In this document: piece by piece, positions 3,211 to 60,708 of the stretch
Layout of the letters: every line of letters starts with the position of its first letter
Position numbering within the stretch: position 1 is the first letter of the stretch
From: Planctomycetota bacterium
GTDB lineage: Bacteria; Planctomycetota; SZUA-567; H5-PLA8
Direction: 5' to 3'
Assembly (NCBI GenBank): GCA_023150555.1
Contig: JAKLKQ010000028.1
Location: 9,764-73,763, forward strand
Length of the DNA: 64,000 bases
Notes under the pieces: model-generated
Seen by the model: the letters and a program-made list of their open reading frames with translations, nothing else
Databases searched by the model: none
Told to the model about the DNA's origin: nothing
Translations under genes and position numbers: made by a program

Positions 3211-3213
3211 ACT

Positions 3214-12316: not shown

Positions 12317-13891
12317 GTGATCACGAACGCCATGCTTCGATACGGAAAGCACGTACGCCCCGCCACCGCCGCCGCGAAGGCGGTGGACGAGCCCGGCGAC
12401 GACGAACTGCTGCGCCGCATCGCGGAGGAACGAGACCGCGAGGCTTTCGAGGCGCTCTTCCGCCGCCACCAGGGCCGCGCCTACGCGCTGGCGCTGCACG
12501 TCGCCGGCAGCCCGCAGATCGCCGAGGAGGCCGTGCAGGAAGCGATGCTCGGCGTCTGGCGCTCCGCCCGCACCTACCGGCCCGGCGGCAGTGCCCGCGC
12601 GTGGATCTGCCGGATCGTGGCCCGCAAGGCCTGCGCCTGCGCGCGCAACCACCGGAACCAGGGACCGAACATGGATGCGGCGATCGAAAGCAACGCAGCG
12701 TATGCCGGAGCGGCCGCCGACGAGGCCCTTGCGCAGGACGAACTGCACAGCGCGCTGCGCGCCGAGGTCGGACGGCTGCCCGAACGCAGCCGCGCCATCG
12801 TCGGGCTCTACTTCCTCGCGGGATTGTCGCAGGACGAGATCGGGCGCGAACTGAACATGCCGCAGCGCACGGTCTCGCTGAAGCTCGAGCAGGCCCTGGA
12901 GAGCCTGCGCCGCAGCCTCACGCAGGCGGGCTTCGCCTCGGCCGCCGTGATCGTCCAGGGGCCGCAGATGACGCGGCTGCTGGAGAGCGCCTATCCTGTG
13001 CCGCCGGAACTCGGCGCGCGCATTCTCGAGGCCGTCGGCCAGGCCGGCACCGCCGCACGCAGCACCTTGCGCCGGGTGCCGGTGCGCGTCGTCGCGCGGC
13101 CGGTCTGGGCTGCCGGGTTGGGCCTGCTGGCGTTGGGACTGGCTGCGACCGCCTGGGTCGGGCTGAACGCGCCCGCGCCGTCGGTGCTCGCCGCGCCGCC
13201 TGCGCCTGCCGAAGCGCCGCGTGCGATTCCGCCGGCCGCAGCTGCGGACAAAGCGCCGCCGCTTCCGGCGCCCTACCACAAGGTCTGGACCTTCGAGGCC
13301 GGCGCGCCGAAGGACCTGCTCGTGCGCCACGGCAGCTGGCATTGGGCGCCCGGGGACGGTAAGCATCCGGCGGCCATGGTCGCCGACACGATGGTGACCA
13401 GCTTCATCGAACTGCCGCGCGAACCGTTCGCGCACGGCCTGGTGCCCGTCGAGGTCTTGCTGCACGCGGAGCCCAGCGACACGCGTAGCATGAGCGGGAC
13501 CTGCATGGCCTCGTGGGCCAGCAACGAGGCCGGCCTGGCCTCGAAGGCACGCCTGATCCGCTGGAACGTCCTCTTCAACACGCACAGCGTTCACCGCACC
13601 TGCTTCGACGGGCGCTGGGCCGTGCAGTTCCGCGATGGCGAGCCCAAGTGCATCTTCGACTACACGGACATCGCGGAGGCCGACCGCCTCTGCGTGGTGG
13701 TGCGCAACTGGCGCATCGAGCGCATCGAGCTGCGGGTGCTTCCGGAACCGGAAGCCGCGGCGCTGCGCGCCGATCGCGCCCTGAACTTCGAGACGTTCCC
13801 TGGAAAGCTCGGCCGGATGGACCATTTCCCCTTCGCTGGCGGCATGCCGCGCGACGGCGGATTCTGGCCGGGCGAGGAGAAACCGCAATGA
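12317..13891 (+). CDS. ECF sigma factor fused via linker and one TM helix to an uncharacterised ~230-aa extracytoplasmic domain
   Basis: GGGAG RBS before the GTG start. Sigma region 2 is EEAVQEAMLGVWRSARTY; region 4 is RAIVGLYFLAGLSQDEIGRELNMPQRTVSLKLEQA. TM helix WAAGLGLLALGLAATAWVGL. The C-terminal domain is homologous to that of 42296..43852 (HKVWTF..W.W.P..., RIELR.L.EPE). Confidence 0.75.
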   Translation: MITNAMLRYGKHVRPATAAAKAVDEPGDDELLRRIAEERDREAFEALFRRHQGRAYALALHVAGSPQIAEEAVQEAMLGVWRSARTYRPGGSARAWICRIVARKACACARNHRNQGPNMDAAIESNAAYAGAAADEALAQDELHSALRAEVGRLPERSRAIVGLYFLAGLSQDEIGRELNMPQRTVSLKLEQALESLRRSLTQAGFASAAVIVQGPQMTRLLESAYPVPPELGARILEAVGQAGTAARSTLRRVPVRVVARPVWAAGLGLLALGLAATAWVGLNAPAPSVLAAPPAPAEAPRAIPPAAAADKAPPLPAPYHKVWTFEAGAPKDLLVRHGSWHWAPGDGKHPAAMVADTMVTSFIELPREPFAHGLVPVEVLLHAEPSDTRSMSGTCMASWASNEAGLASKARLIRWNVLFNTHSVHRTCFDGRWAVQFRDGEPKCIFDYTDIAEADRLCVVVRNWRIERIELRVLPEPEAAALRADRALNFETFPGKLGRMDHFPFAGGMPRDGGFWPGEEKPQ

Positions 13892-14154
13892 ACGCCTGGC
13901 CCGTCGAACGCTGGGGCCGCCTGGTGGCGGGCGCGTCGATCCTCGCCTTCACCGCGCTGGCCGTGCTGCATCACCCGTACTGGTTGCTGGCGGTCGCTGC
14001 CGGTGCGGTGAACCTTGTGCTCTCGGCGCTGACGGATCGCTGCCCCGTCCGCGCGCTGCTACTGAAACTGGGCGCACGCGAATGCGATACCTCGTTGGAA
14101 ACCGGCCCCGCTGCGAGCCGCGCCGGGGTCCTCGTGGAAAGGAGCCTCTCATGA
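13888..14154 (+). CDS. DUF2892 (YgaP-like) small two-TM membrane protein
   Basis: The ATG overlaps the sigma stop (ATGA at 13888-13891). ERWGRLVAGASILAFTAL ... NLVLSALTDRCPVRALLLKLG matches the DUF2892 pattern with a conserved Cys-Pro. Paralogue at 43966..44277. Confidence 0.7.
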   Translation: MNAWPVERWGRLVAGASILAFTALAVLHHPYWLLAVAAGAVNLVLSALTDRCPVRALLLKLGARECDTSLETGPAASRAGVLVERSLS

Positions 14155-14870
14155 TCGCCGAACCCGAAGCCCCCGCCATCTGCCTGGCGCCCGACGCCCT
14201 GACGCGGGACCGCTTCAGCAACATCTCGCAGGTGCTGCGCCGGATCGCGACGGAGTCCGTCACCGAGCGCCGCCGCGAACCCGACCCGGCCATCGTCGTG
14301 CGCAAGGTCCGCCGCACGAGCGAACTCGAGGAGGTCCACCGCCTGACCTACCGCGCCTACCGCGAACGCGGCTACTGCGGCGAGCAACCCGACGGCAAGC
14401 TGGTTCACTACCCGCACCTGGAGAACATCCCCGAGACGTCCGTCTTCGTGGCCTACGAAGAAGGGAAGATCCTGGGCACCGTCTCGGTGACGCTCGACGG
14501 CCCAGCGGGCCTGCACGTGGACGCGGACTTCAAGGACACGGTGGACAAAGTGCGCGCCGAGAACCGCCGGCTGTGTGCGCCGTGGCGCATCGCGACGCAC
14601 AGTTCGCTGCGCAGCGAGAAGCGCGTGGTTATGGCGCTGCTGCAGGCGGTGGTGGACGAGGCCTTTGACGCGATGGGCTGCCAGACGTTCCTGTGCACCT
14701 TCAATCCGCGGCACGAACGCTTCTACCGCCGGATCTGGAACATGCCCACCATCGCGCGGCACGAAGGCAGCGATGGGCTGGAGAACGCCCCCGCCGTGCT
14801 GATGCGCTGCGACATCGAGACGATCCCGCTCGAGTGGCTCAACAACGTCGGCGGGAACGGCCAGGGGTGA
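14151..14870 (+). CDS. GNAT-fold N-acyl amino acid synthase-like protein (FeeM / LuxI-related)
   Basis: GGAAAGGAG RBS; the ATG overlaps the DUF2892 stop (ATGA at 14151-14154). ELEEVHRLTYRAYRERGYC ... VFVAYEEGKILGTVSV ... FNPRHERFYRRIW resembles long-chain N-acyl amino acid synthases (FeeM/exosortase-associated family). Motif-level call only. Confidence 0.6.
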   Translation: MIAEPEAPAICLAPDALTRDRFSNISQVLRRIATESVTERRREPDPAIVVRKVRRTSELEEVHRLTYRAYRERGYCGEQPDGKLVHYPHLENIPETSVFVAYEEGKILGTVSVTLDGPAGLHVDADFKDTVDKVRAENRRLCAPWRIATHSSLRSEKRVVMALLQAVVDEAFDAMGCQTFLCTFNPRHERFYRRIWNMPTIARHEGSDGLENAPAVLMRCDIETIPLEWLNNVGGNGQG

Positions 14871-14958
14871 AGGGCGGGGGAAGGGATGAAGTGTGAGGGA
14901 TGAAAAACTGAATCGGGTGATCAAGAAACATCGAACGGCACTCCGAAACGGAATGCCG

Positions 14959-15000
14959 TTCTCTGAGAGCCTCTGTGTTCTCCGAGTCTCTGCGTTGAGG
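14959..15000. repeat. Short periodic intergenic repeat (CTCTG[AT]G / CACAGAG units)
   Basis: TTCTCTGAG AGCCTCTGTG TTCTCCGAG TCTCTGCG lies between convergent genes. It belongs to the same unit family as 27531-27566, 40545-40572 and 52514-52536. Confidence 0.4.
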
Positions 15001-23097: not shown

Positions 23098-23361
23098 TCA
23101 GGCGGTCTTGGTCAGGTGCTTGCCGACCAGCTTGGTCATCTCGAACATGCTGACGCGATCCTTGCCGCCGAAGATGGCCTTCAGCTTGGCGTCGGCGATG
23201 ATGGTGCGCTTCTCCTTGGGATCCTGGAGATTGTGCTTCTTGATGTAATCCCAGAGCTTCTTGGTTACTTCGGTGCGCGGAAGAGCGGCCGCGCCGACGA
23301 TCTCGGCGAGTTCCGCGCTGGGCTTCACCGGCTTGAAGAAGGCCGATTTCTTGTCTGCCAT
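23098..23361 (-). CDS. SWIB/MDM2-domain protein
   Basis: ELAEIVGAAALPRTEVTKKLWDYIKKHNLQDPKEKRTIIADAKLKAIFG is a SWIB domain. GGAGG lies 9 nt upstream of ATG 23361 (track start 23370 is too close to the RBS). Confidence 0.85.
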   Translation of the reverse strand: MADKKSAFFKPVKPSAELAEIVGAAALPRTEVTKKLWDYIKKHNLQDPKEKRTIIADAKLKAIFGGKDRVSMFEMTKLVGKHLTKTA

Positions 23362-23523
23362 CGGGTACATCCTCCTGGAAGGGCCGAATCGGTCATGGCC
23401 GAAGCGGCTGCACGACCCCCCGTACGACGTTCGGCGAATGCCTACGATCGTACCTGTATCGGTCGTTTTTGTGAATCGGCTGAATCAAAAGAAGTTACGC
23501 CCTAGGTGCGCAACGCAAATCCT

Positions 23524-40760: not shown

Positions 40761-41507
40761 GTGCCTGTGCATCGACGCGATCCCTATCCGACCGGGAAGG
40801 TCCACGGTAATGCGGCCGAAGAAGGCTGGACCGACGCGGATTCCCGAGTGGTCACTATAACGCTGGCCATTGGATTCAGTGTGTTGGCCGTCGGAACTCT
40901 TCTGTATGATGGCCTCTGGCTTCCCTTCATCCTGATCATGCTGCACGTGGCGCGACTCCTGGTCGTCGGCGGCCGCCGCGCGAATCCCTGGCTGCCGGAT
41001 CATCCCGTATTCCACGATCTGTTCACCGTGCCCGCCTCCCGAAAGCGTTTCACATTCACCTACTTCACGCTGTTGGCTTTTGTGGTGATGGCTAGCTTAG
41101 CGATCTGGGGCGGCGTCGAGGTCCGCGCGCTTTTTCCGCATGAGCCCTTGGTTCTGGTCTTATACGCGGGGCTCTCGCTGGCGCCCGTCCTGATCGCGTC
41201 GCTGGTCGTCGAGTACGTGCAAGTTTCAAGCAAAAGAAGGAAGCGGAAAAGCCCACGCCTCGCCCCAGGCGCACTCGGCGGCGGAAGGCGATGCGCGCTC
41301 GGCCATAATGCCCTCGAGGATCAACGGCATGAGCGATCAGGGACAGCTGGAACACCGCATCGCGACCATTGCGTTGGTGTTGTTCTTGATGGTGGCGGGC
41401 GTTGCTGCCGGCCTGGCAACAGGGTTCTGGTGGCTCCTCCCGCTGGGTTTGGTTTACGGTGCGAGCCATTGGGTCGATTTCACGAGCCGGAGCCCGCAAC
41501 GGACTAA
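40761..41507 (+). CDS. 4-TM membrane protein, paralogue 1 (3' end uncertain)
   Basis: GTG start after AAAGGGG. HPVFHDLFTVPASRKRFTFTYFTLLAFVVMASLAIWG aligns with paralogue 2. The ORF continues ~90 aa past the aligned end and overlaps the next gene, so the true stop or frame is doubtful. Confidence 0.5.
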   Translation: MPVHRRDPYPTGKVHGNAAEEGWTDADSRVVTITLAIGFSVLAVGTLLYDGLWLPFILIMLHVARLLVVGGRRANPWLPDHPVFHDLFTVPASRKRFTFTYFTLLAFVVMASLAIWGGVEVRALFPHEPLVLVLYAGLSLAPVLIASLVVEYVQVSSKRRKRKSPRLAPGALGGGRRCALGHNALEDQRHERSGTAGTPHRDHCVGVVLDGGGRCCRPGNRVLVAPPAGFGLRCEPLGRFHEPEPATD

Positions 41508-41784
41508 CCATCCAGCTTTCCTTAACGTCTTTGAATTGCTCGCACGCAAGAAGACCTTTTCTTTCCGCTATCTTACGTTGCTGGCTTTTGTGTTGATGGC
41601 GAGCTGTGTCGCCTTGGCTGCAATCAAAATCATGGAAACCTTCCCGGAGAAGAAGTTCGCGTTCGTGGTCTTCCTCTTCTTCGCGGTACCGGTGGTTCTG
41701 TACCTCACGCTGTTCATCGAAGTCCTGCAGTTGCCGAAGGAGGACAAGAGTGACGAGGACCGCGGCGGGAAACCGGGCGCGTGA
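41329..41784 (+). CDS. 4-TM membrane protein, paralogue 2
   Basis: GAGGA lies 9 nt upstream of ATG 41329. HPAFLNVFELLARKKTFSFRYLTLLAFVLMASCVALAA. Local GC is well below the window average (43-50% in two 60-nt samples counted). Confidence 0.6.
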   Translation: MSDQGQLEHRIATIALVLFLMVAGVAAGLATGFWWLLPLGLVYGASHWVDFTSRSPQRTNHPAFLNVFELLARKKTFSFRYLTLLAFVLMASCVALAAIKIMETFPEKKFAFVVFLFFAVPVVLYLTLFIEVLQLPKEDKSDEDRGGKPGA

Positions 41785-41788
41785 CGCT

Positions 41789-42115
41789 TCACTTCCTCAG
41801 CCACGAAATCAATTGGACGATTTGGTCAAGGATCACGACCACAACGGCAGGCAGTACGATGGCGTATAGCAGCAACGGCAGGGAGTTCTCCAGCCACGCA
41901 TCTGGGAGCAGGCCGCTGCCAACGATCCCCAAGCAAAGGTAGGCAGGAAGCGCGATGTATCCCATGCAGCCGCCCTGATTCTCTTCCTCTCGATCCGCCG
42001 AGCCTACTTTGGCTGAGTTCGCCTGGTGCGCATGCGCGGCGAGTTCTTCGCGCCAGGCTGGATCGCTCAGGCGCAGGACGCTGCTGCGGCGGGGGTCGGC
42101 GGCGCGGCTCTTCAT
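41789..42115 (-). CDS. Small 2-TM membrane protein (hypothetical)
   Basis: This is the C-terminal 108 codons of track ORF 41789..42454, from ATG 42115 (AGGAAA upstream). The hydrophobic end is MGYIALPAYLCLGIVGSGLL...LLLYAIVLPAVVVVILDQIV. The upstream part of the track ORF looks non-coding. Confidence 0.4.
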   Translation of the reverse strand: MKSRAADPRRSSVLRLSDPAWREELAAHAHQANSAKVGSADREEENQGGCMGYIALPAYLCLGIVGSGLLPDAWLENSLPLLLYAIVLPAVVVVILDQIVQLISWLRK

Positions 42116-42295
42116 CACCTGTTTCCTAAGTGCCGCCCCGCCTTCCTTTCGAACGATCCCTCCTCCAGGATGCAACTCAATAAAAATAAAAGAGTTATGA
42201 CTCGCCATTTTTCTCCCGTTTCTTCTGCTCACCCCCGCTGTCCCGAGGTTGGGTGGATAGAACGGGGCCGGTGCGTAAGATGGGAGGGCGTTCTT

Positions 42296-43852
42296 GTGCA
42301 TATGACGGCAGCGCAGCACGCGCCCACAACGCCCGCCCGCCAGGACCGGAGAGGACCCAAGCGCGTGGACGCTACGCAGGACGGCGAGCTTGAGCTGCTG
42401 CGGCGAATTGCGCGGGACCGCGACCACGCGGCGTTTCAGGAACTTTATGGGCACATTTCAAAACCGGCGTACAATCTGGCCCTGCACTTGACCCGCGACG
42501 CGTACCTGGCCGAGGAGGCCGTCCAGGATGGCATGGTGCGCGTTTGGCGTTCGGCCGGGCAGTGTACGGAAGGCAGCGCGCGGACCTGGGTGCTGCGGAT
42601 CGTGGCGAACGAATGCCTGCGGCTCTTGAAGAAGAAGAGGAATAGAAACGTGGCCATGACGTCCGACAATGCGGATCTGTTTCCCGCGCGCGAGATTAAG
42701 AACGACGCCGGCGCCGAGCACGAGGAACTGCAGGAGGCCCTGCACCGCGGCATCGAGCGCCTGCCCGACCACACGCGCCAGATCGTCGCGTTGTATTACG
42801 GCGCGAACCTGAGCCAGCGCGAGATCGGCGAGATGCTGGAGGTCCCGCAGACGACCGTCAGCCTGCACCTGCGCGAGGCCCTCGACAATCTCCGCACCGC
42901 GCTTGCCGGCGCCGGCTTCGCCGCCGCCGTGCCGATGCTCGAATCCGGCGCGCTGAAGGACGTGCTGCTGGGCGGCGCGCAGGCGCCTCCGGACCTGCTC
43001 TCGAAGATCGTCGTGCAGCTCGAGAACGCCGCGCGTATCACGCAGCGCTTCAGCCGCCGCCTGGCTCCGGCCACCGCCAAAGGAAAGGTTTTTGCCACGG
43101 TGGCGTTTTGCGCGGCGGCGGCCGCCGCCGGCGCGTGGTGGTACGTGCATACGCAGGACGCGCAGCCGCAAAGTGCGACCGCGCCAACCACGCCCGTGGC
43201 TGCCGCGCCCGCCGAACGCATCCACCGCGTCTGGGACTTTACGAAGGGCCCGGACGCGTCCTTTCGCGTGACGGGGAGCGAATGGTCGTGGGTGCCGGCG
43301 CAGGGCGGCCGGCCCGCCGGCATGCAAACCGTCACGCGCGACAGCAAGCGCACCAAGGCCTTCCTGCCGCTGGAGGTGCCGCTGGGCCGTTGCTGGGAGG
43401 TGCGCATCCGCGGCCGCTTCCAGCGCACGAAGACGCCCGCGCCCATCGAATTGAGCGTCACTCCGACAGTGGTCGTTCCGCCTCCGGAGTACACGCGTTA
43501 CATCAGCGACGCCGCGCTCAGTGCCGACGAAGATTGCGTCTCGGTCACCTATCTGCTGCCGGACAAGTGGGAGGCGACCTCGTACTGGTCGGCAGACGAG
43601 ACCAAGCGCTGGGCCACGTCCTTTTTCCACCACGAGCCGGAGACCGAGTTGCGTTCGAGCCTGGTCCTGGTCGCGATCCATGCCATCGTGTCGCGCGTGG
43701 AACTGCGCGAGATCGCGCCCGAAGAAGTGCCCGCGCCGTACAACGATCCCATGCGCGCCATCAAGGAATTCAAACTGAAGGAGAAGCGTTACCACCGCAC
43801 GAACTATCCGGGTACGAAGACCCTTGAAGAAATCGGCAAGCCGTCTGAGTAG
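42296..43852 (+). CDS. ECF sigma factor fused via linker and one TM helix to an uncharacterised extracytoplasmic domain (paralogue of 12317..13891)
   Basis: GGGAGGG lies 7 nt upstream of GTG 42296 (ATG 42302 is an alternative). Region 2 is EEAVQDGMVRVWRSAGQC; region 4 is RQIVALYYGANLSQREIGEMLEVPQTTVSLHLREA. TM helix VFATVAFCAAAAAAGAWWYV. The ectodomain has HRVWDF..W.W.P.. and RVELREIAPEE. Confidence 0.7.
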   Translation: MHMTAAQHAPTTPARQDRRGPKRVDATQDGELELLRRIARDRDHAAFQELYGHISKPAYNLALHLTRDAYLAEEAVQDGMVRVWRSAGQCTEGSARTWVLRIVANECLRLLKKKRNRNVAMTSDNADLFPAREIKNDAGAEHEELQEALHRGIERLPDHTRQIVALYYGANLSQREIGEMLEVPQTTVSLHLREALDNLRTALAGAGFAAAVPMLESGALKDVLLGGAQAPPDLLSKIVVQLENAARITQRFSRRLAPATAKGKVFATVAFCAAAAAAGAWWYVHTQDAQPQSATAPTTPVAAAPAERIHRVWDFTKGPDASFRVTGSEWSWVPAQGGRPAGMQTVTRDSKRTKAFLPLEVPLGRCWEVRIRGRFQRTKTPAPIELSVTPTVVVPPPEYTRYISDAALSADEDCVSVTYLLPDKWEATSYWSADETKRWATSFFHHEPETELRSSLVLVAIHAIVSRVELREIAPEEVPAPYNDPMRAIKEFKLKEKRYHRTNYPGTKTLEEIGKPSE

Positions 43853-43965
43853 AAGCAAGGGCCGGTAAACACCGAAGCAAACCGACCGTCCGCACCAGAC
43901 GGGCTCACGCGCGCCCGTGCCGGGGAAACTCTGTGCCTGTGCGGAACGAGGGAAGGAGGACCGCG

Positions 43966-44277
43966 ATGCCGCATCCGTCCCAAGCGCCCACCGTCCGTCG
44001 CCCCTGGGAGGTCGCACGCTGGGGCCGTCTGCTGGCCGGCGCGAGCACGCTGGCCTTCACGGTGCTGGGCATGCTGGTCGATCCGCTGTGGCATATCGGC
44101 ACGCTGCTGGGCGCGCTGAACCTGGTGGTGACGGCCGTCACCGACCGCTGCGTGCTGCGCGATGCCCTGCTGCGCCTCGGCGCGAAGGAGCGCGAGGACC
44201 TCTTTCTGCCCGGCGGCGGGGTGCGGCCGGAGGCCCGGCGCGCCGGGCGCGGAAGCGCTGTCCTCATCCGGCGGTAG
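43966..44277 (+). CDS. DUF2892 (YgaP-like) small membrane protein, paralogue 2
   Basis: GGAAGGAGGA RBS. ARWGRLLAGASTLAFTVL ... NLVVTAVTDRCVLRDALLRLGAKE aligns along its length with 13888..14154. Confidence 0.7.
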   Translation: MPHPSQAPTVRRPWEVARWGRLLAGASTLAFTVLGMLVDPLWHIGTLLGALNLVVTAVTDRCVLRDALLRLGAKEREDLFLPGGGVRPEARRAGRGSAVLIRR

Positions 44278-44365
44278 GAATTTGACGGAATTGCTTGGCT
44301 CAAAGGGACGTACCGAAAGTACATCGGTTAGGAAGGCGGAAGAGCGTAGAGCAAAGGAGCTTCCC

Positions 44366-45250
44366 GTGGGCCAACAGATCAAATGCAATCCCATGCCGGA
44401 CGACGTGCGGCGCCTGCGCGCGATGCGCGTCGCCCTGCCGGGCCTGGGCGGCGTCGGCGGTGGACACGCCCAGGTGCTGGCCGAGATGGGCGTCGGCGCG
44501 TTCCACCTCGCGGACTTCGACACCTTCGACCTTGTCAACTTCAATCGGCAGCTCGGCGCGACGATGTCCAGTCTGGGCCGCCTGAAGGCAGACGTTACGG
44601 GCGAACTGATTCGCAAGACGAATCCCGCCGCCGAGGTGACGCTCTTCCGCGATGGCATCCAGCCGGAGAACATCGGCGCGTTCCTCAAGAACGTGGACGT
44701 TGTGGTGGACGGCATCGAGTTCTTCGCCATCGGCGTGCGCCGCATGCTCTACAAGGCCAGCCGCGAACGCCGCATCCCGGTGATCCACGCCGGGCCCATC
44801 GGCTACGGCGCGACGGTGCTGGTATTCGCGCCGGACGGGCCATCCTTCGACGAGTACTTCCGCATTGACGATCGTATGACGCGCGCCGAAATGCTGGCCG
44901 CGCACGCGCTGGGGCACGGCACGGGCTTTAAGAGCGACCTCGATCCGTCGCGCGTGGACTTCCACAAGCGCACCGGCCCGGCGCTGGCCCCGGCCTGCAT
45001 GTTCTGCTCGGCGCTGGCCGCGCAGGAGGTGCTGCGCCTGGCGCGCGGCGAACCATTCCAGGCCACGGCGCCGCGCAACGGATGCTACGTCGATTTGTTC
45101 TACGGGCGCGTGCTGCCGCTGCGGCCCAAGCCCAGTCTGACGCGCACGCTGCGTGGGCGTCTACTGAGGCGCATCATCTTCCGCAGGATGCCGGGCCTGC
45201 GCGAACTGCACGAGACGGAACTGCTGCAACGGAACGCGACCCTCGCCTGA
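44366..45250 (+). CDS. ThiF/MoeB/HesA-family E1-like adenylyltransferase
   Basis: AAAGGAG RBS before GTG 44366. LPGLGGVGGGHAQVLAEMGVGAFHLADFDTFDLVNFNRQ is the E1 nucleotide-binding motif. There is no rhodanese or Ub-like partner domain. Confidence 0.75.
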   Translation: MGQQIKCNPMPDDVRRLRAMRVALPGLGGVGGGHAQVLAEMGVGAFHLADFDTFDLVNFNRQLGATMSSLGRLKADVTGELIRKTNPAAEVTLFRDGIQPENIGAFLKNVDVVVDGIEFFAIGVRRMLYKASRERRIPVIHAGPIGYGATVLVFAPDGPSFDEYFRIDDRMTRAEMLAAHALGHGTGFKSDLDPSRVDFHKRTGPALAPACMFCSALAAQEVLRLARGEPFQATAPRNGCYVDLFYGRVLPLRPKPSLTRTLRGRLLRRIIFRRMPGLRELHETELLQRNATLA

Positions 45251-45283
45251 AGCGAGGGCGCGCGCAATAAAGGAGGCGTATCC

Positions 45284-46363
45284 ATGGTGACGACCGCCAC
45301 GCTGGAATCAAGGCTCGCGGCGCAGAGAGCCGGCTCCGAAAGTGACCTCGACTTCGAAGGCCTCATCTTCATCGGCTGCGGACACACCGCGTCGCAGCTG
45401 CTCTGGGCCGGCTGCGAGTTCGACCTCTTCTCGCTGATTGACCGCGACGGGCCCCGCACGCGCGAAGAGATCGCCTCGGCGCTGAAGATCGACGCACAGC
45501 CCGCGCGCATCCTGCTCGACGGGCTCGCCGCTATGAAGGTGCTGCGCAAGGAAGGCGCGCGCTACGCGAACTCGGCGGCGGCCGCGCGGCACCTGGTGCG
45601 CGGGAAGCCCGAGTGCATGATTGCGACCTTTGGCTGGCAGCACCACATCGTCTACCCGGGGCTGCTGGACTTCATCGAGTCGTTGAAGGCCAACCGCAAC
45701 GTCGGCTTGCGCCGCTTTCCCGGCGATGGCGAGACCCTGTACCAGCGCCTGACGCAGGATCCGAAGACCGAGCGCATCTTCCAGGACGCGATGAGCGGCC
45801 TCAGCGCGCAGGCCAACCGCGTGCTGGCGCAGGTCGCGAATCTGAAGGACACGCGGCACATCGTTGACCTCGGCGGAGGCGACGGCAGCAACTTGGTGGC
45901 GCTGACCGAGCGTTACGCGCAACTGCGCGGCACGGTCTTCGACGGCGCGACGGTGCTGGAGGCCGCGCGCGGAAAAATAGCGGCGGCGGGCCGGCAAGAG
46001 CGCATCGGTACGCACCCCGGCGACTTCCTCGTCGATCCGCTGCCCGCGGACGCCGATGCCTTTCTGCTCGCGCACATCTGCACGATCTGGTCGCCCGAGC
46101 GCAACACGGCGCTATTCCGCAAGTGCTGCGCGGCGCTGCCGCCGGGCGGCAAGCTGCTGGTCTTCAACATGGTCACCGACGACGGCGGGGCCGGCCCGCT
46201 GATGTGCGCGCTGGGTTCGCCGTACTTCCAGGCCGTCGCCAGCGGCGAGGGGATGCTCTACAGCGCCGGCGAGATCGAGGGCTGGCTGCGCGAAGCCGGC
46301 TTCGTGCGGACCACGCGGCAGAAGCTGCCCATGGAGCACGTGCTGATCGAGGCGGTGAAGTAG
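45284..46363 (+). CDS. Class I SAM-dependent O-methyltransferase (family 2, COMT/CrtF-like, with N-terminal dimerisation/wHTH domain)
   Basis: AAAGGAGG RBS. HIVDLGGGDGSNLVAL is motif I. FLLAHICTIWSPE and GGKLLVFNMV are also present. Confidence 0.85.
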   Translation: MVTTATLESRLAAQRAGSESDLDFEGLIFIGCGHTASQLLWAGCEFDLFSLIDRDGPRTREEIASALKIDAQPARILLDGLAAMKVLRKEGARYANSAAAARHLVRGKPECMIATFGWQHHIVYPGLLDFIESLKANRNVGLRRFPGDGETLYQRLTQDPKTERIFQDAMSGLSAQANRVLAQVANLKDTRHIVDLGGGDGSNLVALTERYAQLRGTVFDGATVLEAARGKIAAAGRQERIGTHPGDFLVDPLPADADAFLLAHICTIWSPERNTALFRKCCAALPPGGKLLVFNMVTDDGGAGPLMCALGSPYFQAVASGEGMLYSAGEIEGWLREAGFVRTTRQKLPMEHVLIEAVK

Positions 46364-46494
46364 CGCTTCCCATTGGCTTTCCGGATCCACGCTGGACGTT
46401 GCGCGCGGGGCGGGGGCGGCTATCGTTATGTTCCCGAGGGGCGAAGGAACGCCCCGAGAGCGCCCACCATCGTTCACGAAAGCGAGTCCAACCC

Positions 46495-47547
46495 ATGCCG
46501 CAGAAGCTGCGCTGCGCCGTCATCGGCGCCGGAGGCATCGCACGGTCCCACATCCTAGGTTTCCGCAAGCACGCCTCGGCCGAGGTCGTCGCGATCGCGG
46601 AACTCAGCCCCGAACGCCGCCAGGAGGCGATGACCAACTTCGAGATTCCCCGCGGGGTGGAGAACTACAAGGAGCTGCTTGAGGACAAGAGCATCGACAT
46701 CGTCTCCATCGCGCTGCCGAACTTCCTGCATTCGCAGGTGGCCGTCGAGGCCATCAACGCCGGCAAGCACGTGCTGCTGGAGAAGCCCATGGCCACGCAC
46801 GCGTCCGAGGCGCAGAAGATCCTCGACGCGCTCAAGAAGAAGAAGGTCGTCTTCATGGTCGGGCAGAACTGGCGCTTCGAGAAGGAACCGCAGATCGTCA
46901 AGGACTACGTCACGCGCGGCGAACTCGGCGACGTGTACCACGCGCGCGCGTGGTGGCTGCGCCCCAGCGGCATCCCGCGCATCGGTTCGTGGTTCACGCA
47001 GAAGAAGTTCGGCGGCGGCGGCTGCGGCTACGACATCGGCGTGCACATGCTCGACTGCACCCTGCACCTGATGGGCTGCTTCGACGCAGTGGCCGTCAGC
47101 GGTCTGACCTACGCGAAGTTCGGCCCGCGCGGCCTGGGCGGCGGCGGATGGGGCAAGGGCGAGATCGACCCGAACAAGCCCTTCGACGTTGAGGACTATG
47201 CCGGAGCGCTGATCAAGCTCAAGAACGGTTCCAGCGTGATGCTGGAAGTCAGCTGGGCGATGCAGGCCGATCCGACGGTCGGCTACGGCATCTCGCTGTT
47301 CGGCACCGAGGCCGGCGCGCAGATCAATCCGGTCAAGATCATTCGCATCCGCGAAGGCCGCAACGAGGTCGCCACGCCGACCTACCAGAAGCTGGCGCTG
47401 CCCGAGGACCGCATGGTCCACTTCATGGACTGCGTCGTCAATGGCGCCGAGCCCGTGGTGAAGCCCGAACAGTCCTTCAAGGTCCAGCGCATCCTCGACG
47501 CGATCTACGAATCTGCTTCGAGCGGCAAGGAAGTGCGCCTGGACTGA
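46495..47547 (+). CDS. Gfo/Idh/MocA-family NAD(P)-dependent oxidoreductase
   Basis: LRCAVIGAGGIARSHILGF is the Rossmann start, and HVLLEKPMA is the family motif. Start at ATG 46495 inside track ORF 46123..47547. Confidence 0.9.
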   Translation: MPQKLRCAVIGAGGIARSHILGFRKHASAEVVAIAELSPERRQEAMTNFEIPRGVENYKELLEDKSIDIVSIALPNFLHSQVAVEAINAGKHVLLEKPMATHASEAQKILDALKKKKVVFMVGQNWRFEKEPQIVKDYVTRGELGDVYHARAWWLRPSGIPRIGSWFTQKKFGGGGCGYDIGVHMLDCTLHLMGCFDAVAVSGLTYAKFGPRGLGGGGWGKGEIDPNKPFDVEDYAGALIKLKNGSSVMLEVSWAMQADPTVGYGISLFGTEAGAQINPVKIIRIREGRNEVATPTYQKLALPEDRMVHFMDCVVNGAEPVVKPEQSFKVQRILDAIYESASSGKEVRLD

Positions 47548-47594
47548 CCGCTGCCGCGAAGAGTAAGGTTTGAAGGGTAAAGGTTGAAGTCATA

Positions 47595-47630
47595 GAGCGC
47601 CGCCCGGGCAACGGGCGGCGCTCATTTTTT
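47595..47630. terminator. Bidirectional rho-independent terminator
   Basis: Perfect 12-bp stem GAGCGCCGCCCG/CGGGCGGCGCTC, loop GGCAA, then A-TTTTTT. It lies between convergent genes. Confidence 0.75.
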
Positions 47631-47639
47631 GTGTCACCA

Positions 47640-48071
47640 TCACGGGTCGAAGGACCAGATCCAGAAGAACAGGTATAGCAGCAGCCCGGTGGCCATCAAT
47701 GCGCCCATGAAGACGCCGAAGCCGCCGGCCGCGCCGGTCAAAAGCGCGCCGCAGCCGCCGATGCCGAGCACCGAGATCATCATCGAGCGCAGCGAGAAGC
47801 GCTTGTGCGTGAAGCCGAAGAAGATCACGCCAAGCCACGCCGCGGAAGATACCATGGCCGCGAGCGCGCAGGGATAAGCCAGGCAAGCGATGGCGGCGGC
47901 CAACTGCGTATCGACGAACGTAGCCAGCGCGCCGAAGACCAGAAAGGCCAGCATCCAGTTCAGGCAACGGTACGTGAATCCCCGTGTGGCGTTCCGTGCC
48001 TTCAGCCAGGGATCGGAAAGGGCGATGGGCGGACCGCCAAGAGCGTCGTTCATGCCGTCACTATACCCCAC
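47640..48071 (-). CDS. Membrane protein of unknown function (4 TM)
   Basis: Hydrophobic segments are LNWMLAFLVFGALATFV, AIACLAYPCALAAMV, WLGVIFFGF and GALMATGLLLYLFFWIW. Confidence 0.6.
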   Translation of the reverse strand: MGYSDGMNDALGGPPIALSDPWLKARNATRGFTYRCLNWMLAFLVFGALATFVDTQLAAAIACLAYPCALAAMVSSAAWLGVIFFGFTHKRFSLRSMMISVLGIGGCGALLTGAAGGFGVFMGALMATGLLLYLFFWIWSFDP

Positions 48072-48187
48072 GCGCAGGGCGAGCCGCGGGCGCCCGACCC
48101 GGCGTTTCCGTCACTTTATCCTTAACCCTTGACTCCTTATCCTTTGCCGGCGTCAGCGGAGTGTAAAACCTTCAACGCGAGGTCCCC

Positions 48188-48970
48188 ATGTCCTTCGTCC
48201 ATGCGCATTTCTTCAGCGATGTGTTGCAGAAGCAGGTGCAGTGCTACGTGCTGTTGCCCGACGCCGGGCGCGGGCCGTTCCCGGTGCTGTACCTGCTCCA
48301 CGGCCGCAGCGACGATCACACCATCTGGCACCGCCGCACGCGCATCGAGCAGCTGGTGCGCGGGATGCCGTTGGCGGTCGTGATGCCCGACGGTTTCCGC
48401 GGTTTCTACACCGACAACGAATCGGGCCCCGCGTACGCCCGCTACCTTTACGAGGACGTGATCGGCTTCGTCGAGCGAACCTTTCCGGTCGCCCACAGGC
48501 GTTCGGCGCGTTGCATCGGCGGCTTAAGCATGGGCGGATACGGCGCCCTGCGCGCGGCCTTCGCGCGTCCGGACCTCTTCGCCAGCGCGCACAGCCACAG
48601 CGGCGCGTTGAAAGCTGGGCATAACCCGGTCCGGTTCGCCAGCTCGCAACCGGGCGAAGACCGCCTGATCTTCGGCGCGCGCCCCGCCGGCAGCGCGCAC
48701 GACCTGTTCGCATGGGCGGCGACGCGAAAGCGCCAGGGCACGCGGCTGCCGAAGCTGCGCATCGACTGCGGCGTGGACGATTACCTGATCGAACATAACC
48801 GCGCGTTTCACGATCACCTGGAGGCGCTGAAGATCCCGCACGAGTACCGCGAGTTCGCCGGCGCGCACGACTGGGCATACTGGGACGAACACATCGGCGA
48901 GGCGCTCGCCTTCCACGCCCGTGCGCTCAAACTGCCGGGCCACGCGCAGGCCATCAAGGGCCAGCGCTGA
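48188..48970 (+). CDS. Esterase D / putative-esterase family serine hydrolase
   Basis: FPVLYLLHG and the nucleophile elbow GGLSMGGYGAL. The layout resembles S-formylglutathione hydrolase/EstA-like enzymes. Confidence 0.85.
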   Translation: MSFVHAHFFSDVLQKQVQCYVLLPDAGRGPFPVLYLLHGRSDDHTIWHRRTRIEQLVRGMPLAVVMPDGFRGFYTDNESGPAYARYLYEDVIGFVERTFPVAHRRSARCIGGLSMGGYGALRAAFARPDLFASAHSHSGALKAGHNPVRFASSQPGEDRLIFGARPAGSAHDLFAWAATRKRQGTRLPKLRIDCGVDDYLIEHNRAFHDHLEALKIPHEYREFAGAHDWAYWDEHIGEALAFHARALKLPGHAQAIKGQR

Positions 48971-55409: not shown

Positions 55410-56930
55410 TTACGGATCCGGCTGCACCAGCACACCGTCGGCGACGGCGTGATCGAGTTCCACCACGCTGCCGTCGGCGCGTTCGACGACCCAACGGTTG
55501 GCGGCGACGTTGCGCGGGCGCAGCTTGATGCGTTCGCCCTTCTTCAGCGGCGTATAGGTGGCCGCCGCGGGCTTGACCTCGACGATCGTGCCGCCCTGGT
55601 CCTTGCGCAGCAGGCTGACCATCACCGGCTGGCCCGAATGGGTGTCGACGAAGTCCGGCGGGATCTCGCTGCCGTGCGGGTCCTTCAGCGGGTGGCCCAG
55701 GATGTGGTCGATGTAGTCGACGCTGGCCTCTTCGTGCAGATGTTCGAGCTTGTGCGCCTGCCCGTGCAGCTCGGCTTCGGGCGTGCCGACCTGTGAGAGG
55801 TACGTCTCCCACAGGCGGTGCGCGCGCTGCAAGCGCCGCGCCTGCAGCGTGCCCTGTTCGGTCAGCGCGTAGCCTTCGGCACGCGCCTCCAGCAGGCCGT
55901 CCTGCACCAGGCGCTTGACGGCGCGCAGCGTGGCGCGGGGTTCGTGGCCCAGGCCGTCGCGCAGTTCGCCCGCCGAGACTGCGCGCGCGCCGGCCTTCAG
56001 CACCAGCCCGAGGATGTCCTCCACCAGTTCCTGCGGCAGCATGCGCCGCCGCCGCAGCCACCCGGCCAACAGCCCGTAGCGCGGCGCGATCACCAGCACG
56101 ACCAGGAACTGCAGCGAGCAGAAGAGCATGATCGCCGCGCCGCCGCTGGAGTCGATGGCGTACGCCAGGTACAGGCCGCCGACGACGCTGCTGGCGGCGA
56201 AGCCCGCGGCCAGCCACATCATGCGCTGCAGGCGGTCGGTCAGCAGGTAGGCGGTGGCCGCCGGCGTGATCATCAGGCCGACGACGAGGATCAGGCCGAC
56301 CATGCTGATGCCGCTGACGACGACCAGCGAAACGCACGTCGTCAGCGCGTAGTCGATCAAGAGCACCGGCAGGCCCAGCGCCGCGGCCAGCACGGGGTCG
56401 AAGCTCGCGATCTGAAAGTGACGGAAGAAGAGGATGACCAGGCTCAGCACCAGGGCCGAAGCGATGGCGCTGGCGCGCAGGTCGTCGTCGGCCACGCCCA
56501 GCACGTCGCCCATGATGAAGTGATACAGGTCGATGTGGATCTCGCTGCTGTAGACGGTCACCAGTACCGCGCCGGCGGCGAAGAGTCCCGTGTACATCAC
56601 GCCGATGGCCGTGTCCTCCTTGATGCGGCTGACGCGCGAGACGAAGCCGATCATCGCCACCGCCAGCACGCTGGCGATCAGCGCGCCCACCAGCATCCCG
56701 CCGGCGTGCGCCTCCTCGTGGAAGAAGAACTTCATCACCAGGTAGCCGCCGGCGACGCCCGCGAGCATGATGTGCGACAGCGCGTCGCCCAGGAACGCCA
56801 TGCGCCGCAGGATCACCAGGCACCCGACCACCGCGCAGACGACGGCGACCAGCGTGCCGCCCAGCAGCGCCTTCAGGAAAAACTCCTGGTGCAGCGGCGC
56901 GACGAAAGTGTGTTCGAGCCATGCGTTCAT
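55410..56930 (-). CDS. ABC-3 family metal (Mn/Zn/Fe) permease fused to a C-terminal DtxR-type wHTH + dimerisation + FeoA/SH3 module
   Basis: Start at ATG 56930, overlapping the ATPase stop (ATGA). The permease part is LLGGTLVAVVCAVVGCLVILRRMAFLGDALSH... The C-terminal ~200 aa are LRAVKRLVQDGLLEARAEGYALTEQG..RAHRLWETYL (DtxR-like) plus GQPVMVSLL...GERIKL (FeoA-like). Confidence 0.8.
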   Translation of the reverse strand: MNAWLEHTFVAPLHQEFFLKALLGGTLVAVVCAVVGCLVILRRMAFLGDALSHIMLAGVAGGYLVMKFFFHEEAHAGGMLVGALIASVLAVAMIGFVSRVSRIKEDTAIGVMYTGLFAAGAVLVTVYSSEIHIDLYHFIMGDVLGVADDDLRASAIASALVLSLVILFFRHFQIASFDPVLAAALGLPVLLIDYALTTCVSLVVVSGISMVGLILVVGLMITPAATAYLLTDRLQRMMWLAAGFAASSVVGGLYLAYAIDSSGGAAIMLFCSLQFLVVLVIAPRYGLLAGWLRRRRMLPQELVEDILGLVLKAGARAVSAGELRDGLGHEPRATLRAVKRLVQDGLLEARAEGYALTEQGTLQARRLQRAHRLWETYLSQVGTPEAELHGQAHKLEHLHEEASVDYIDHILGHPLKDPHGSEIPPDFVDTHSGQPVMVSLLRKDQGGTIVEVKPAAATYTPLKKGERIKLRPRNVAANRWVVERADGSVVELDHAVADGVLVQPDP

Positions 56931-57733
56931 GGCGCGGCGCCCTCGCGGGCCTTGCGCGCGGCTTCCTCGCGCAGGTGTTCGAACGCGCGCAGGCGGCCCT
57001 CGTAGACCTCGCTCAGCAGGTCCTCGCGCAGCACCTGCGCCGGCGTGCCGTAGGCGAACAGGCGCTGCTTGACCAGCAGCAGCTTGTCGAAGTACTCGGC
57101 GGCGGTGACCAAGTCGTGGTGCACCACAACCAGCGTGCGGCCCTGCCCCTTCGCGCTGTGCAGCACGTCCAGCAGCGCGCGCTCGGTGCTCGCGTCCACG
57201 CCCGCGAAGGGCTCGTCGAGCAACAGGACCTCGCCGCCCTGCGCCAGCGCACGCGCCATGAAGACGCGCTGCTGCTGGCCGCCGCTGAGCTGCCCGATCT
57301 GCCGGTCGGCGAACTCGCTCATACGCACCATCTCCAGCGCCGCGTCGACGGCCTGGCGGTCGGCGGTGCCGGGGTCCTGCCACCAGCGCAGGTGCCCGTA
57401 GCGTCCCATCATCACCACCTCGCGCACCGTGACCGGGAAGTCCCAGTCCACCGCGCCGCGCTGTGGCACGTAGGCGATGCGCCCGATGGCGTGCTCGGCG
57501 GGCGTGCCGAGGATCTTGATCTGCCCCACGTCGCGCTTCACGAAGCCCAGCAGTGCCTTGATGAAGGTGCTCTTGCCCGCGCCGTTGGGCCCGATCACGC
57601 CGACCAGAACGCCGGGCTCGATCGCGACGCTGACGTCCAGCAGCGCGGGGCGCGGCCCGTAGCTAACGGTCAGGTGCTGCACTTCGATGGCCGGCGTTGT
57701 GGCCGTGCGCGCGCCGCTGGTGCTAATGGCCAT
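56927..57733 (-). CDS. Metal ABC transporter ATP-binding protein
   Basis: AAGGAGG lies 9 nt before ATG 57733. GPNGAGKST (Walker A), LSGGQQQRV (signature) and LLLDEP (Walker B). Confidence 0.85.
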   Translation of the reverse strand: MAISTSGARTATTPAIEVQHLTVSYGPRPALLDVSVAIEPGVLVGVIGPNGAGKSTFIKALLGFVKRDVGQIKILGTPAEHAIGRIAYVPQRGAVDWDFPVTVREVVMMGRYGHLRWWQDPGTADRQAVDAALEMVRMSEFADRQIGQLSGGQQQRVFMARALAQGGEVLLLDEPFAGVDASTERALLDVLHSAKGQGRTLVVVHHDLVTAAEYFDKLLLVKQRLFAYGTPAQVLREDLLSEVYEGRLRAFEHLREEAARKAREGAAP

Positions 57734-58241
57734 GGGCATCGTCCTCCTTCGGCGCGGCAGGCTCGGGCACCGTGAGCGTAAAGGTCCCTTCCACGGCCGT
57801 GCCGGCGACGGACCAGAGCGTCTGCTCCGCGCCGTCCAGCGCCTGCCCGTCGCGCAGCACGCGCACGCGCACGGCGTTGGCACGGTTGATCGTATCCGCC
57901 GGCGGATTGGCCGAAACGTAGAACTCGTTGAGGCCGATCACGACGCCTTCCAGCGGCGAAACGAGCACCGGCTTGCCGGCCTCGAGCTTCTTCGTCTCCC
58001 GCAGCACCTCCTTGCCCTTCAGCTTCACGACCAGCGCGGGCTTGGCGTCGCCATCTCCCAGGTCCAGCGCGAAGGCGTCGGGCGCGAGGCCGAACGAGGG
58101 CGTGACTTCCAGCGCGTAGACGCCCTGCGCCTTGCGTTCGACGTAGGCCTCGGGCGGCGGCGGCGGCGCGCGCCGTTCGAGGTACAGGTGCACGCCGCCG
58201 GCGATCACGACCCACGCCAGGAGGGCGCCCAGGATGCGCAT
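57723..58241 (-). CDS. N-terminally anchored periplasmic protein of unknown function inside the metal ABC operon
   Basis: GGAAAGGAA RBS. MRILGALLAWVVIAGGVHLYL is the TM anchor. The body is beta-rich and the C-terminus ends EDDAHGH. The stop overlaps the ATPase start. Confidence 0.65.
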   Translation of the reverse strand: MRILGALLAWVVIAGGVHLYLERRAPPPPPEAYVERKAQGVYALEVTPSFGLAPDAFALDLGDGDAKPALVVKLKGKEVLRETKKLEAGKPVLVSPLEGVVIGLNEFYVSANPPADTINRANAVRVRVLRDGQALDGAEQTLWSVAGTAVEGTFTLTVPEPAAPKEDDAHGH

Positions 58242-58256
58242 TGTTCGTTCCTTTCC

Positions 58257-59171: not shown

Positions 59172-59322
59172 CGGTACCTCTCCTATGAAGGGTTGCGTCC
59201 CAGCGCGAAGGGCCGGGCCGCCGTCGAAGATTGTCGGCTCGAACACATTCCCAATCCGAATCCAGGGTCCTTTCGCAACGTCTTCCGGCTTGAAGCTCTT
59301 GCCAATCGGTTCGCATCCGCTC

Positions 59323-60678: not shown

Positions 60679-60690
60679 GGCTAACTCTCC
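60659..60690. promoter_or_regulatory. Conserved GCTAAC-containing element at the 5' end of the porin gene (copy A)
   Basis: GCGGCTAACTT-GTTAGT-CACGGCTAACT. Blocks GCTAACTT (60662-60669) and CACGGCTAACT (60676-60686) are identical to copy B at 61322-61350. The half-site resembles the DtxR/IdeR box TTAGGTTAGCCTAACCTAA. Confidence 0.4.
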
Positions 60691-60708
60691 CCGGCGAAAA
60701 ACGCGCCG

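Follow-up and report, generated by a model that had tools for sequence, protein, structure and literature searches.

Introduction

The closest described relatives of the locus analysed here make N-acyl oxazolones. OxzA and OxzB in Pseudoalteromonas, and TyzA, TyzB and TyzC as well as TrzA and TrzS (Rv1356c and Rv1355c) in mycobacteria, do so with an N-acyl amino acid synthase (NAS), a ThiF-like enzyme and a desaturase (FDO): an enzyme of the FeeM fold N-acylates tyrosine, phenylalanine or tryptophan, the ThiF-like enzyme closes the oxazolone with ATP, and FDO desaturates the product (PMC10404671, PMC12856293, PMC12596934). As found for TrzS, the ThiF step can come before desaturation, yielding a saturated oxazolone (PMC12856293). 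Here we analysed a stretch of 64 kb of contig JAKLKQ010000028.1 from a Planctomycetota bacterium (hereafter the window), in which two cassettes with paralogous heads carry genes of this kind. Cassette 1 carries a FeeM-like synthase, and cassette 2 carries the presumed cyclase, a ThiF-like enzyme, together with a methyltransferase. It is quite probable that the locus of cassette 2 is one half of a split pathway for an N-acyl aromatic amino acid lipid of the stieleriacine or tyrazolone type.

NAS, ThiF and FDO genes have also been proposed to make the stieleriacines, N-acyl dehydrotyrosines of the planctomycete Stieleria (PMC12479983). Stieleriacines A to C bear a ring methyl group, and the methyltransferase of the S. 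maiorica cluster groups with a tyrosine C3-methyltransferase (PMC12479983). Stieleriacine C is the saturated congener and has D-configuration; the role of ThiF in these producers was called 'enigmatic' (PMC12479983).

Like TyzABC of Mycobacterium tuberculosis, OxzAB of Pseudoalteromonas rubra and TrzAS, the window holds a FeeM-fold acyltransferase and a putative ATP-dependent ThiF cyclase that has no partner protein, and the models that describe the architectures of those systems (PRK08223, PRK14851, PRK14852) are the best profiles of the window ThiF. Unlike them, the window has no FDO, neither beside or fused to ThiF nor elsewhere in the 64 kb; its acyltransferase lies in a separate operon 30 kb away and a SibL-like methyltransferase is attached; its operons are headed by a fused extracytoplasmic function (ECF) sigma factor and a DUF2892 protein; and its ThiF lacks the first ~20 positions of PRK08223. 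The Stieleria maiorica and S. neptunia clusters, which we set beside the window by gene content and not by sequence, likewise hold NAS, ThiF-family and methyltransferase genes near each other, with the pathway partly unclustered (PMC12479983), but they include an FDO/nitroreductase gene. A further parallel is TcdA, the tRNA t6A cyclodehydratase, a ThiF-like enzyme which, with no ubiquitin-like partner, activates a carboxylate to form a ring of the oxazolone type (PMC12596934). Its substrate, however, is a tRNA nucleoside, the similarity is confined to the N-terminal Rossmann half, and the window ThiF reaches 62 bits on the NCBIfam TcdA model against a cut-off of 304. The pathway as such is known; what sets the proposed variant apart are its split over two operons, the missing local desaturase, a probable C-methyltransferase and the fused-sigma/DUF2892 head.

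Results

The window ThiF matches the Pfam ThiF domain with 133.7 bits. Among the NCBIfam models PRK08223 ranks first for it (256 bits), followed by PRK14851 (218) and PRK14852 (182); on the ThiF, MoeB, MoeZ, TcdA and SAMP-E1 models it reaches at most 77. When PRK14852 (989 residues) is used as a ruler, FeeM of cassette 1 covers positions 36-201, the window ThiF 328-540 and the FDO of a related locus, L082, 614-799; the L082 FDO also matches PRK14851 positions 323-668 and the Rv1355c (TrzS) family model, on which the window ThiF scores 67 bits. Because FeeM, ThiF and FDO match successive parts, these PRK models describe NAS-ThiF-FDO and ThiF-FDO fusions. Across 30 aligned sequences there is no variation at the ATP-site residues G26, G28 and G31 (GxGxxG), D50, R61, Q62, K74 and D115, the last of which corresponds to the adenylation-motif Asp targeted by mutation in TrzS (PMC12856293). 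By sequence, the nearest solved structure is TcdA (64 bits). The gene is under constraint (dN/dS 0.12 against the related locus L081 and 0.14 against L087). Together these data suggest that ThiF is most likely a cyclase of the OxzB/TyzB/TrzS type, which would activate and cyclise N-acyl amino acids.

The gene neighbourhoods of ThiF relatives give the same picture. We fetched 160 loci from genomes and metagenomes (denoted L), of which 157 were analysable; the following counts are lower bounds, since the contigs are often short and the tblastn searches relied on a small number of queries. The flanks hold FDO at at least 104 of the 157 loci, a FeeM-like gene at at least 51 and one or the other at at least 120, and at at least 41 loci ThiF and FDO share one reading frame. 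The closest relative, L081 (ThiF 91% identical), has the order sigA, a 273-aa gene, DUF2892, sigB, ThiF, methyltransferase and Gfo. In L087 (ThiF 70%) the order is sigma, FeeM, ThiF and methyltransferase, the last 64% identical to that of the window, and in L088 (ThiF 62%) it is sigma, ThiF and methyltransferase (53%); both are short contigs, and FeeM could lie just beyond the end of L088. Sigma, DUF2892, FeeM (51%), a B12 radical-SAM methylase and ThiF follow each other in L171 (ThiF 58%), and sigma, DUF2892, a second sigma, FeeM and ThiF in L173 (ThiF 57%). The loci L082 and L084 (ThiF 62% and ~52%) carry sigma, FeeM, ThiF, a small open reading frame (ORF), FDO in some cases and a MacB-type exporter. 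L086 (ThiF 63%) shows a UbiE-type methyltransferase, FeeM, FtsX, ThiF and an ABC-adaptor gene, and L032 (ThiF 45%) a methyltransferase (42%), ThiF and FDO.

FeeM and ThiF orthologues are thus neighbours in L082, L084, L087 and L173, with a single gene between them in L171, and the ThiF-methyltransferase adjacency recurs in L081, L087, L088 and L032. Since FeeM, ThiF and the methyltransferase are contiguous in relatives, the two cassettes of the window correspond to parts of one operon elsewhere. As to gene order, sigma-DUF2892 and either ThiF-methyltransferase or FeeM-ThiF are conserved units, whereas the adjacency of DUF2892 and the E1-like ThiF, to which a preliminary description of the window had drawn attention, is not conserved in itself.

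The small ORF of L082 (10935-11189) and L084 (10933-11214) is conserved and encodes 84-93 aa with the motif ALARTYCE[IL]RA; it shares bases with the ThiF stop codon and is followed by the FDO or MacB genes. It has no NCBIfam match and no recorded Pfam match, and no counterpart was found in the window.

The synthase of cassette 1 matches the FeeM family PF21926 with 132 bits (cut-off 27), and a PDB search with it returned FeeM (2g0b) as sole match. It is 51% identical both to the FeeM adjoining ThiF in L082 and to the FeeM one gene from ThiF in L171. By analogy with these relatives, the synthase is likely to supply the substrate of the window ThiF. In the preliminary description the substrate had been left as unknown; the link to its likely maker, the FeeM-like synthase of cassette 1, had been overlooked.

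The methyltransferase encoded next to ThiF matches the Pfam models for the Methyltransf_2 fold and its dimerisation domain with 107 and 39 bits. By a wide margin, the closest solved methyltransferase is SibL (222 bits; 38.5% identical in a gap-free alignment of 322 residues), the 3-hydroxykynurenine C4-methyltransferase of the sibiromycin pathway, whose catalytic residues are Tyr134 and Tyr295 (PMC4426599); SibL methylates the carbon next to the phenolic OH of 3-hydroxykynurenine. The two residues of this 'tyrosine clamp' are kept as Y153 and Y314, and the Gly and Asp residues that bind S-adenosylmethionine are shared by both proteins. At the position of the catalytic dyad of O-methyltransferases (His255/Asp256 in ASMT), the window enzyme has Thr267-Ile268 and SibL Val248-Ile249. 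The enzyme departs from SibL in that Asp132 is replaced by Thr and Tyr99 by Trp, and in its setting, a lipid rather than a pyrrolobenzodiazepine pathway with tyrosine or N-acyl-tyrosine as predicted substrate. A phenolic O-methyltransferase of the COMT, ASMT or MfnG type is less likely, as the catalytic His is missing and the tyrosine O-methyltransferase MfnG gives only 51 bits. The family named in the preliminary description was right, but its label of O-methyltransferase probably does not hold: the protein is closest to an aromatic C-methyltransferase and is probably one itself. Judged by homology, ring C-methylation, which would give a 3-methyl-tyrosine unit, is more likely than O-methylation.

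In L171 the gene between FeeM and ThiF (2111-3544), behind a sigma-DUF2892 head, encodes a B12-binding radical SAM protein. It is most similar to the hopanoid C-3 methylase HpnR (213 bits, under the model cut-off) and is probably a second, unrelated type of C-methylase in these clusters.

Each cassette starts with the same two genes, encoding a fused sigma factor (denoted sigma1 and sigma2 after the cassettes) and a DUF2892 membrane protein. The preliminary description had called the two heads paralogous, and our alignments confirm it. The sigma parts are 41% identical over 232 aa (E 2e-40), the similarity of the C-terminal domains is weak (24% over 182 aa, E 3e-4), and the DUF2892 copies are 50% identical over 90 aa (E 2e-24); the shared motifs listed there (AGFA..A, H.VW.F, W.W.P, R[IV]ELR, RWGRL.AGAS.LAFT and TDRC) are visible in the alignments. 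On PF11127 (YgaP-like_TM, DUF2892; cut-off 25.3) copy 1 scores 32.5 bits and copy 2 22.7 bits; most homologues of copy 2 do carry a PF11127 match, and its dN/dS against L081 is 0.28. The sigma proteins score 91.5 and 82 bits on TIGR02937 (sigma70-ECF; cut-off 42.9) and have sigma regions 2 and 4 only, which places them among ECF (group IV) sigma factors. In sigma2, which is 67% identical to sigA of L081, a single hydrophobic segment (residues 265-284, nt 43088-43147) joins the sigma part to a beta-sandwich of ~200 aa; the transmembrane segment of sigma1 spans residues 258-283.

An AlphaFold2 model of sigma2 (mean pLDDT 75) consists of an ECF sigma domain, three short helices, a low-confidence hydrophobic helix (265-284) and the beta-sandwich (residues 305-510, pLDDT 80-95). 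The short helices correspond to the conserved AGFAAAVP..L..APP.L stretch. In Foldseek the sigma part matches SigW, SigK and sigma-E at the top, and the C-terminal domain gives only weak matches to ConA-like lectins, SO2946, calreticulin and CBM22 (E about 1e-4 to 1e-2, TM-score about 0.4); no Pfam model matches it. The model supports describing it only as a lectin-like beta-sandwich, and nothing more specific. We infer the topology of the head, that is, the side faced by the beta-sandwich domain, which we refer to as the ectodomain. The ectodomain is rare: an exhaustive HMMER search of 1.84 billion representatives returned 20 relatives, nearly all of about 500 aa and matching at the C-terminus, and sigma region 4 was found in 20 of the 22 proteins scanned (the 20 relatives and the two window paralogues).

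A DUF2892 protein of the same subfamily is encoded directly 3' of the fused sigma in all eight places that we looked at (twice in the window, and in L081, L169, L170, L171, L172 and L173). In L169 (8001-11498) and L172 (1-1589) the cargo behind the head is a GH28 rhamnogalacturonidase/polygalacturonase-like gene, with DUF2892 72-75% identical. Because the cargo in two of the eight places is a GH28 enzyme, the head is a regulatory module, a portable unit of two genes for which NAS/ThiF cargo is frequent and not exclusive.

ECF sigma factors with C-terminal regulatory extensions are termed 'one-component' ECFs. The window proteins resemble them in that regions 2 and 4 are followed by a fused extension instead of a separate anti-sigma factor, but here the extension spans the membrane and ends in a beta-sandwich for which there is no Pfam model, and a DUF2892 gene always follows. 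In the literature searched we found no fused ECF sigma/DUF2892 module, and none of the papers mentioning DUF2892 ties it to sigma factors. In the main text of the Stieleria comparative-genomics paper the word 'sigma' is absent, and the two occurrences of 'regulat*' are unrelated to gene regulation (PMC12479983).

L081 (4835-9340) and L173 (6414-9880) share the layout sigma, an additional gene in one case, DUF2892, second fused sigma and cargo. The window has neither a second sigma nor the 273-aa gene of L081, which weakly matches the NCBIfam model PRK06202 (hypothetical protein). The layout may reflect a two-sigma cascade of which the window keeps a shortened form.

Two further observations in the window concern sigma factors. 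A third fused sigma of the same layout (19797-21995, plus strand) has ECF regions 2 and 4, a hydrophobic segment (254-276), a Pro-rich linker and, at residues 353-729, a complete serpin domain (370 bits on Pfam Serpin); it is unusual for a sigma factor to be anchored in the membrane and to carry a protease inhibitor as its ectodomain, and this suggests protease sensing. Directly upstream of cassette 1 (9389-12060, plus strand), a conventional ECF sigma gene (9389-10216) overlaps an anti-sigma gene whose product joins zf-HC2 to a large ectodomain weakly matching the C-terminal domain of squalene-hopene cyclase.

Coordinates of both cassettes are collected in Table 1. The window has 66% G+C, and its closest homologues come from Planctomycetota. 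The genes of cassette 2 have high third-position GC, and the GTG of sigma2 at 42296 is preceded at 7 nt by the Shine-Dalgarno sequence GGGAGGG. The DUF2892 gene of this cassette has the ribosome-binding site GGAAGGAGG, and the ThiF start is at the same position as in its relative P0002. The intergenic gaps measure 113, 88, 33 and 131 bp. In cassette 1 both junctions, sigma1/DUF2892 and DUF2892/FeeM, are ATGA overlaps. On the plus strand of 41500-48300 the only terminator-like site is the one behind the Gfo gene, and none lies inside cassette 2. All four genes of cassette 2 up to the methyltransferase are under purifying selection (dN/dS 0.12-0.34). Pfam scans bear out the ThiF-fold, family-2 methyltransferase and Gfo/Idh/MocA genes that the preliminary description had placed downstream of the head. 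The pairing of an E1 with a methyltransferase does look like secondary-metabolite chemistry, as had been suggested there.

Table 1. Positions of cassette 1 and cassette 2 features in the 64-kb window.
Feature	Position	Strand	Evidence or remark
sigma2, ECF sigma-transmembrane-ectodomain protein, head of cassette 2	42296..43852	+	Pfam Sigma70_r2, r4
DUF2892 / YgaP-like small membrane protein, second head element	43966..44277	+	PF11127, two hydrophobic segments
ThiF-like (E1-fold) adenylating enzyme	44366..45250	+	GTG start, AAAGGAG before it
Class I 'family 2' methyltransferase, SibL-like	45284..46363	+	Pfam Methyltransf_2 + Dimerisation
Gfo/Idh/MocA NAD(P) oxidoreductase	46495..47547	+	Pfam GFO_IDH_MocA
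Intrinsic-terminator-like hairpin, end of cassette 2	47595..47623	+	12-bp stem, 11 G-C pairs, T run
sigma1, paralogous ECF sigma-transmembrane-ectodomain protein, head of cassette 1	12317..13891	+	Pfam Sigma70_r2, r4
Paralogous DUF2892 membrane protein, cassette 1	13888..14154	+	Pfam 32.5 bits
FeeM/NasY-like N-acyl amino acid synthase, cassette 1 cargo	14151..14870	+	Pfam FeeM 132 bits
Palindromic hairpin, likely cassette 1 end	14933..14961	.	between convergent FeeM and alcohol-dehydrogenase genes

The Gfo/Idh/MocA gene may be co-transcribed with cassette 2: it follows the methyltransferase gene after the 131-bp gap, and no terminator-like site occurs from the sigma gene to its end. Its membership in the pathway is doubtful. 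The adjacency of Gfo and methyltransferase is conserved only in L081, the 91% relative, where Gfo is 97% identical with a dN/dS of 0.07, evolving much more slowly than its neighbours. As a pathway gene it was set aside as unproven.

Several other genes in the window deserve mention. Just upstream of cassette 2 (40761-41784, plus strand), two tandem ORFs encode similar small multi-transmembrane proteins that share ...HP.F...F....R K.F.F.Y.TLLAFV.MAS...; both are lower in third-position GC than the genes around them and match no Pfam model. On the minus strand (55410-61338) lies a metal-uptake cluster with an ABC ATPase, ZnuA, an OprB-family porin, a separate DtxR-like repressor and, at 55410-57383, an ABC-3 permease fused to a DtxR-type Fe_dep_repr_C domain. 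A NifU-like domain is fused to a hemerythrin HHE domain at 882-1685 (plus strand), and a second Nfu/NifU gene occupies 8814-9401 (minus strand). A stand-alone SWIB/MDM2-domain protein (23098-23370, minus strand; 90 aa, 113 bits) adjoins genes for NYN-domain and cold-shock proteins.

Discussion

We propose the following pathway, whose substrate, product, order of steps and regulation we infer from the sequences. The FeeM/NasY-like synthase of cassette 1 would N-acylate tyrosine or phenylalanine from an acyl-acyl carrier protein or acyl-coenzyme A. ThiF would then use ATP to adenylate the carboxylate of the N-acyl amino acid, and attack of the amide oxygen on the adenylated carboxylate would give the 5(4H)-oxazolone. 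The SibL-like enzyme would add a methyl group to the aromatic ring, most likely at the carbon ortho to the phenol OH, so that a 3-methyl-tyrosine unit results. Without FDO, the labile saturated oxazolone would serve as an activated intermediate, either hydrolysing, perhaps with epimerisation, or being handed to another nucleophile. The head, an anchored ECF sigma factor and a DUF2892 protein with two transmembrane segments, presumably lets a cue from outside the cytoplasm control how the cargo is transcribed.

A number of observations weigh against this proposal. The hallmark partner is missing: tblastn with the L082 FDO found no FDO/nitroreductase in the 64 kb, and Pfam scans of essentially all called window genes found no FDO either. 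A hidden Markov model (HMM) built from 47 FDO-containing ORFs and run against all six-frame ORFs of the window matched only the ThiF ORF, a match that arises because many of the training ORFs are ThiF-FDO fusions. FeeM lies 30 kb upstream of ThiF, behind a paralogous head, and is not adjacent to it. With 256.2 bits, ThiF falls just under the curated PRK08223 cut-off (266), and it was grouped with OxzB, TyzB and TrzS through profile models, not by direct alignment with TyzB or OxzB. It covers PRK08223 positions 21-257 of 296, and the clade to which it belongs (the window protein, P0002, P0004 and P0005) lacks the N-terminal 'FxYxxAFxRNxGL' segment, including its conserved Arg; read in frame, the DNA upstream of the gene (about 44273-44365) shows no protein-level conservation in L081. 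The preference for C- over O-methylation is drawn from a handful of active-site positions and from SibL, to which the enzyme is 38.5% identical. The sigma-DUF2892 head is not pathway-specific, as it also precedes GH28 genes. Finally, exact 5-mer dyad enumeration in nine sigma upstream regions did no better than shuffled controls, giving no shared promoter. Upstream blocks that look alike by eye were not established as a shared promoter motif, and a sigma-70 consensus scan was uninformative.

Some of these points can be accounted for. The 10 bits by which ThiF misses the PRK08223 cut-off are explained by the absence in its clade of the 'AFxRNxGL' segment that most relatives have; the L082 orthologue scores 356 bits on the same model. 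FDO was likewise not found in the fetched flanks of the Planctomycetota relatives L084, L086 and L171, so that NAS/ThiF clusters without FDO may be a recurrent feature of the lineage. The desaturase gene may lie in another part of the genome; otherwise the product would remain saturated.

Of the alternatives, the one that survives best is that ThiF and the methyltransferase act on a small-molecule carboxylate that does not come from FeeM of cassette 1, for example a free or modified aromatic amino acid, and that the two cassettes are merely co-regulated. In L088 and L081 no FeeM stands between sigma and the ThiF-methyltransferase pair, the window has no FDO, the modular head drives GH28 genes as well, and SibL and RedM, the closest solved methyltransferases, act on tryptophan-derived metabolites, SibL on 3-hydroxykynurenine. 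We nevertheless consider this explanation unlikely. FeeM, ThiF and methyltransferase are contiguous in L087, whose ThiF is 70% identical, FeeM of cassette 1 is 51% identical to those found near ThiF in L082 and L171, and the fusion models join FeeM and ThiF; moreover, L088 and L087 are short contigs, and a FeeM gene could sit just outside L088.

The preliminary description had been reminded of MccB by an E1 standing beside a methyltransferase. According to such a logic, known from MccB and PaaA and ribosomally synthesised, modified peptides, ThiF would adenylate the C-terminus of a short undetected precursor peptide, and the methyltransferase would tailor the peptide or a peptide-nucleotide product. 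That the E1 stands alone fits this idea, PaaA is among the weak PDB matches (31 bits), and the small conserved ORF that overlaps the ThiF stop in L082 and L084 might be looked upon as a precursor gene. This ORF, however, has no window counterpart, no PDB match to MccB reaches E 1e-5, and PaaA trails TcdA (31 against 64 bits). Moreover, ThiF begins 25 residues before its GxGxxG motif (G26) and so has no N-terminal peptide-clamp domain. In the 113-bp and 88-bp gaps around DUF2892 there is no precursor ORF of 60 aa or more beyond the expected off-frame ones (shorter ones were not checked), and the partners of the family across the 157 loci are FDO and FeeM. The MccB-like reading did not hold up, ThiF falling instead into the PRK08223/PRK14851/PRK14852 group (256 against about 77 bits), and we regard it as very improbable.

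A housekeeping MoeB/ThiF adenylyltransferase with its MoaD or ThiS sulfur carrier encoded elsewhere and a methyltransferase neighbour by coincidence is hardly credible, even though the Pfam ThiF domain is present and some relatives are publicly named 'molybdopterin/thiamine biosynthesis adenylyltransferase': the window enzyme stays outside that group (77 bits against 275 for ThiF, 62-75 against 266-449 for MoeB), conserves a single CxxC (C211/C214) where MoeB and ThiF have four Zn cysteines, and is syntenic in its family with FeeM, FDO and methyltransferase genes, not with thi or moa, no thi or moa gene being found in the Pfam scans of called window genes. The preliminary description was correct in seeing no ubiquitin-like or sulfur-carrier partner, for no ubiquitin-like or ThiS-like ORF ending in GG occurs in the window apart from three off-frame, low-GC3 artefacts.

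Returning to the N-acyl amino acid pathway, a more speculative extension ties the head to the chemistry. The head might sense an envelope or extracellular cue, possibly the N-acyl amino acid lipid itself, in an autoinducing manner, and ThiF without FDO might act as an ATP-driven 'azlactone epimerase/activator'; we think it improbable that both hold. If they did, an enzyme of the acyl-homoserine lactone synthase fold and a one-component ECF sigma factor would form an autoinducing circuit analogous to LuxI/LuxR. Azlactones racemise readily. The saturated oxazolone would then racemise and hydrolyse to a D-configured N-acyl amino acid, and an epimerase role would explain both the D-configuration of stieleriacine C and the 'enigmatic' ThiF of planctomycetes in which no oxazolones were seen (PMC12479983).

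For the E1-like protein the proposed pathway turns an apparent orphan into a testable enzyme with a named class of substrate, and it ties two distant operons into one pathway. It would also widen N-acyl amino acid and oxazolone lipid biosynthesis, first described in 2021-2025, to Planctomycetota clusters that have no desaturase in the examined flanks and carry C-methylating tailoring enzymes, either SibL-like or B12 radical SAM. With so few genes, the set defined here could be reconstituted, and the lipids that such clusters may produce are of a kind thought to shape biofilm communities.

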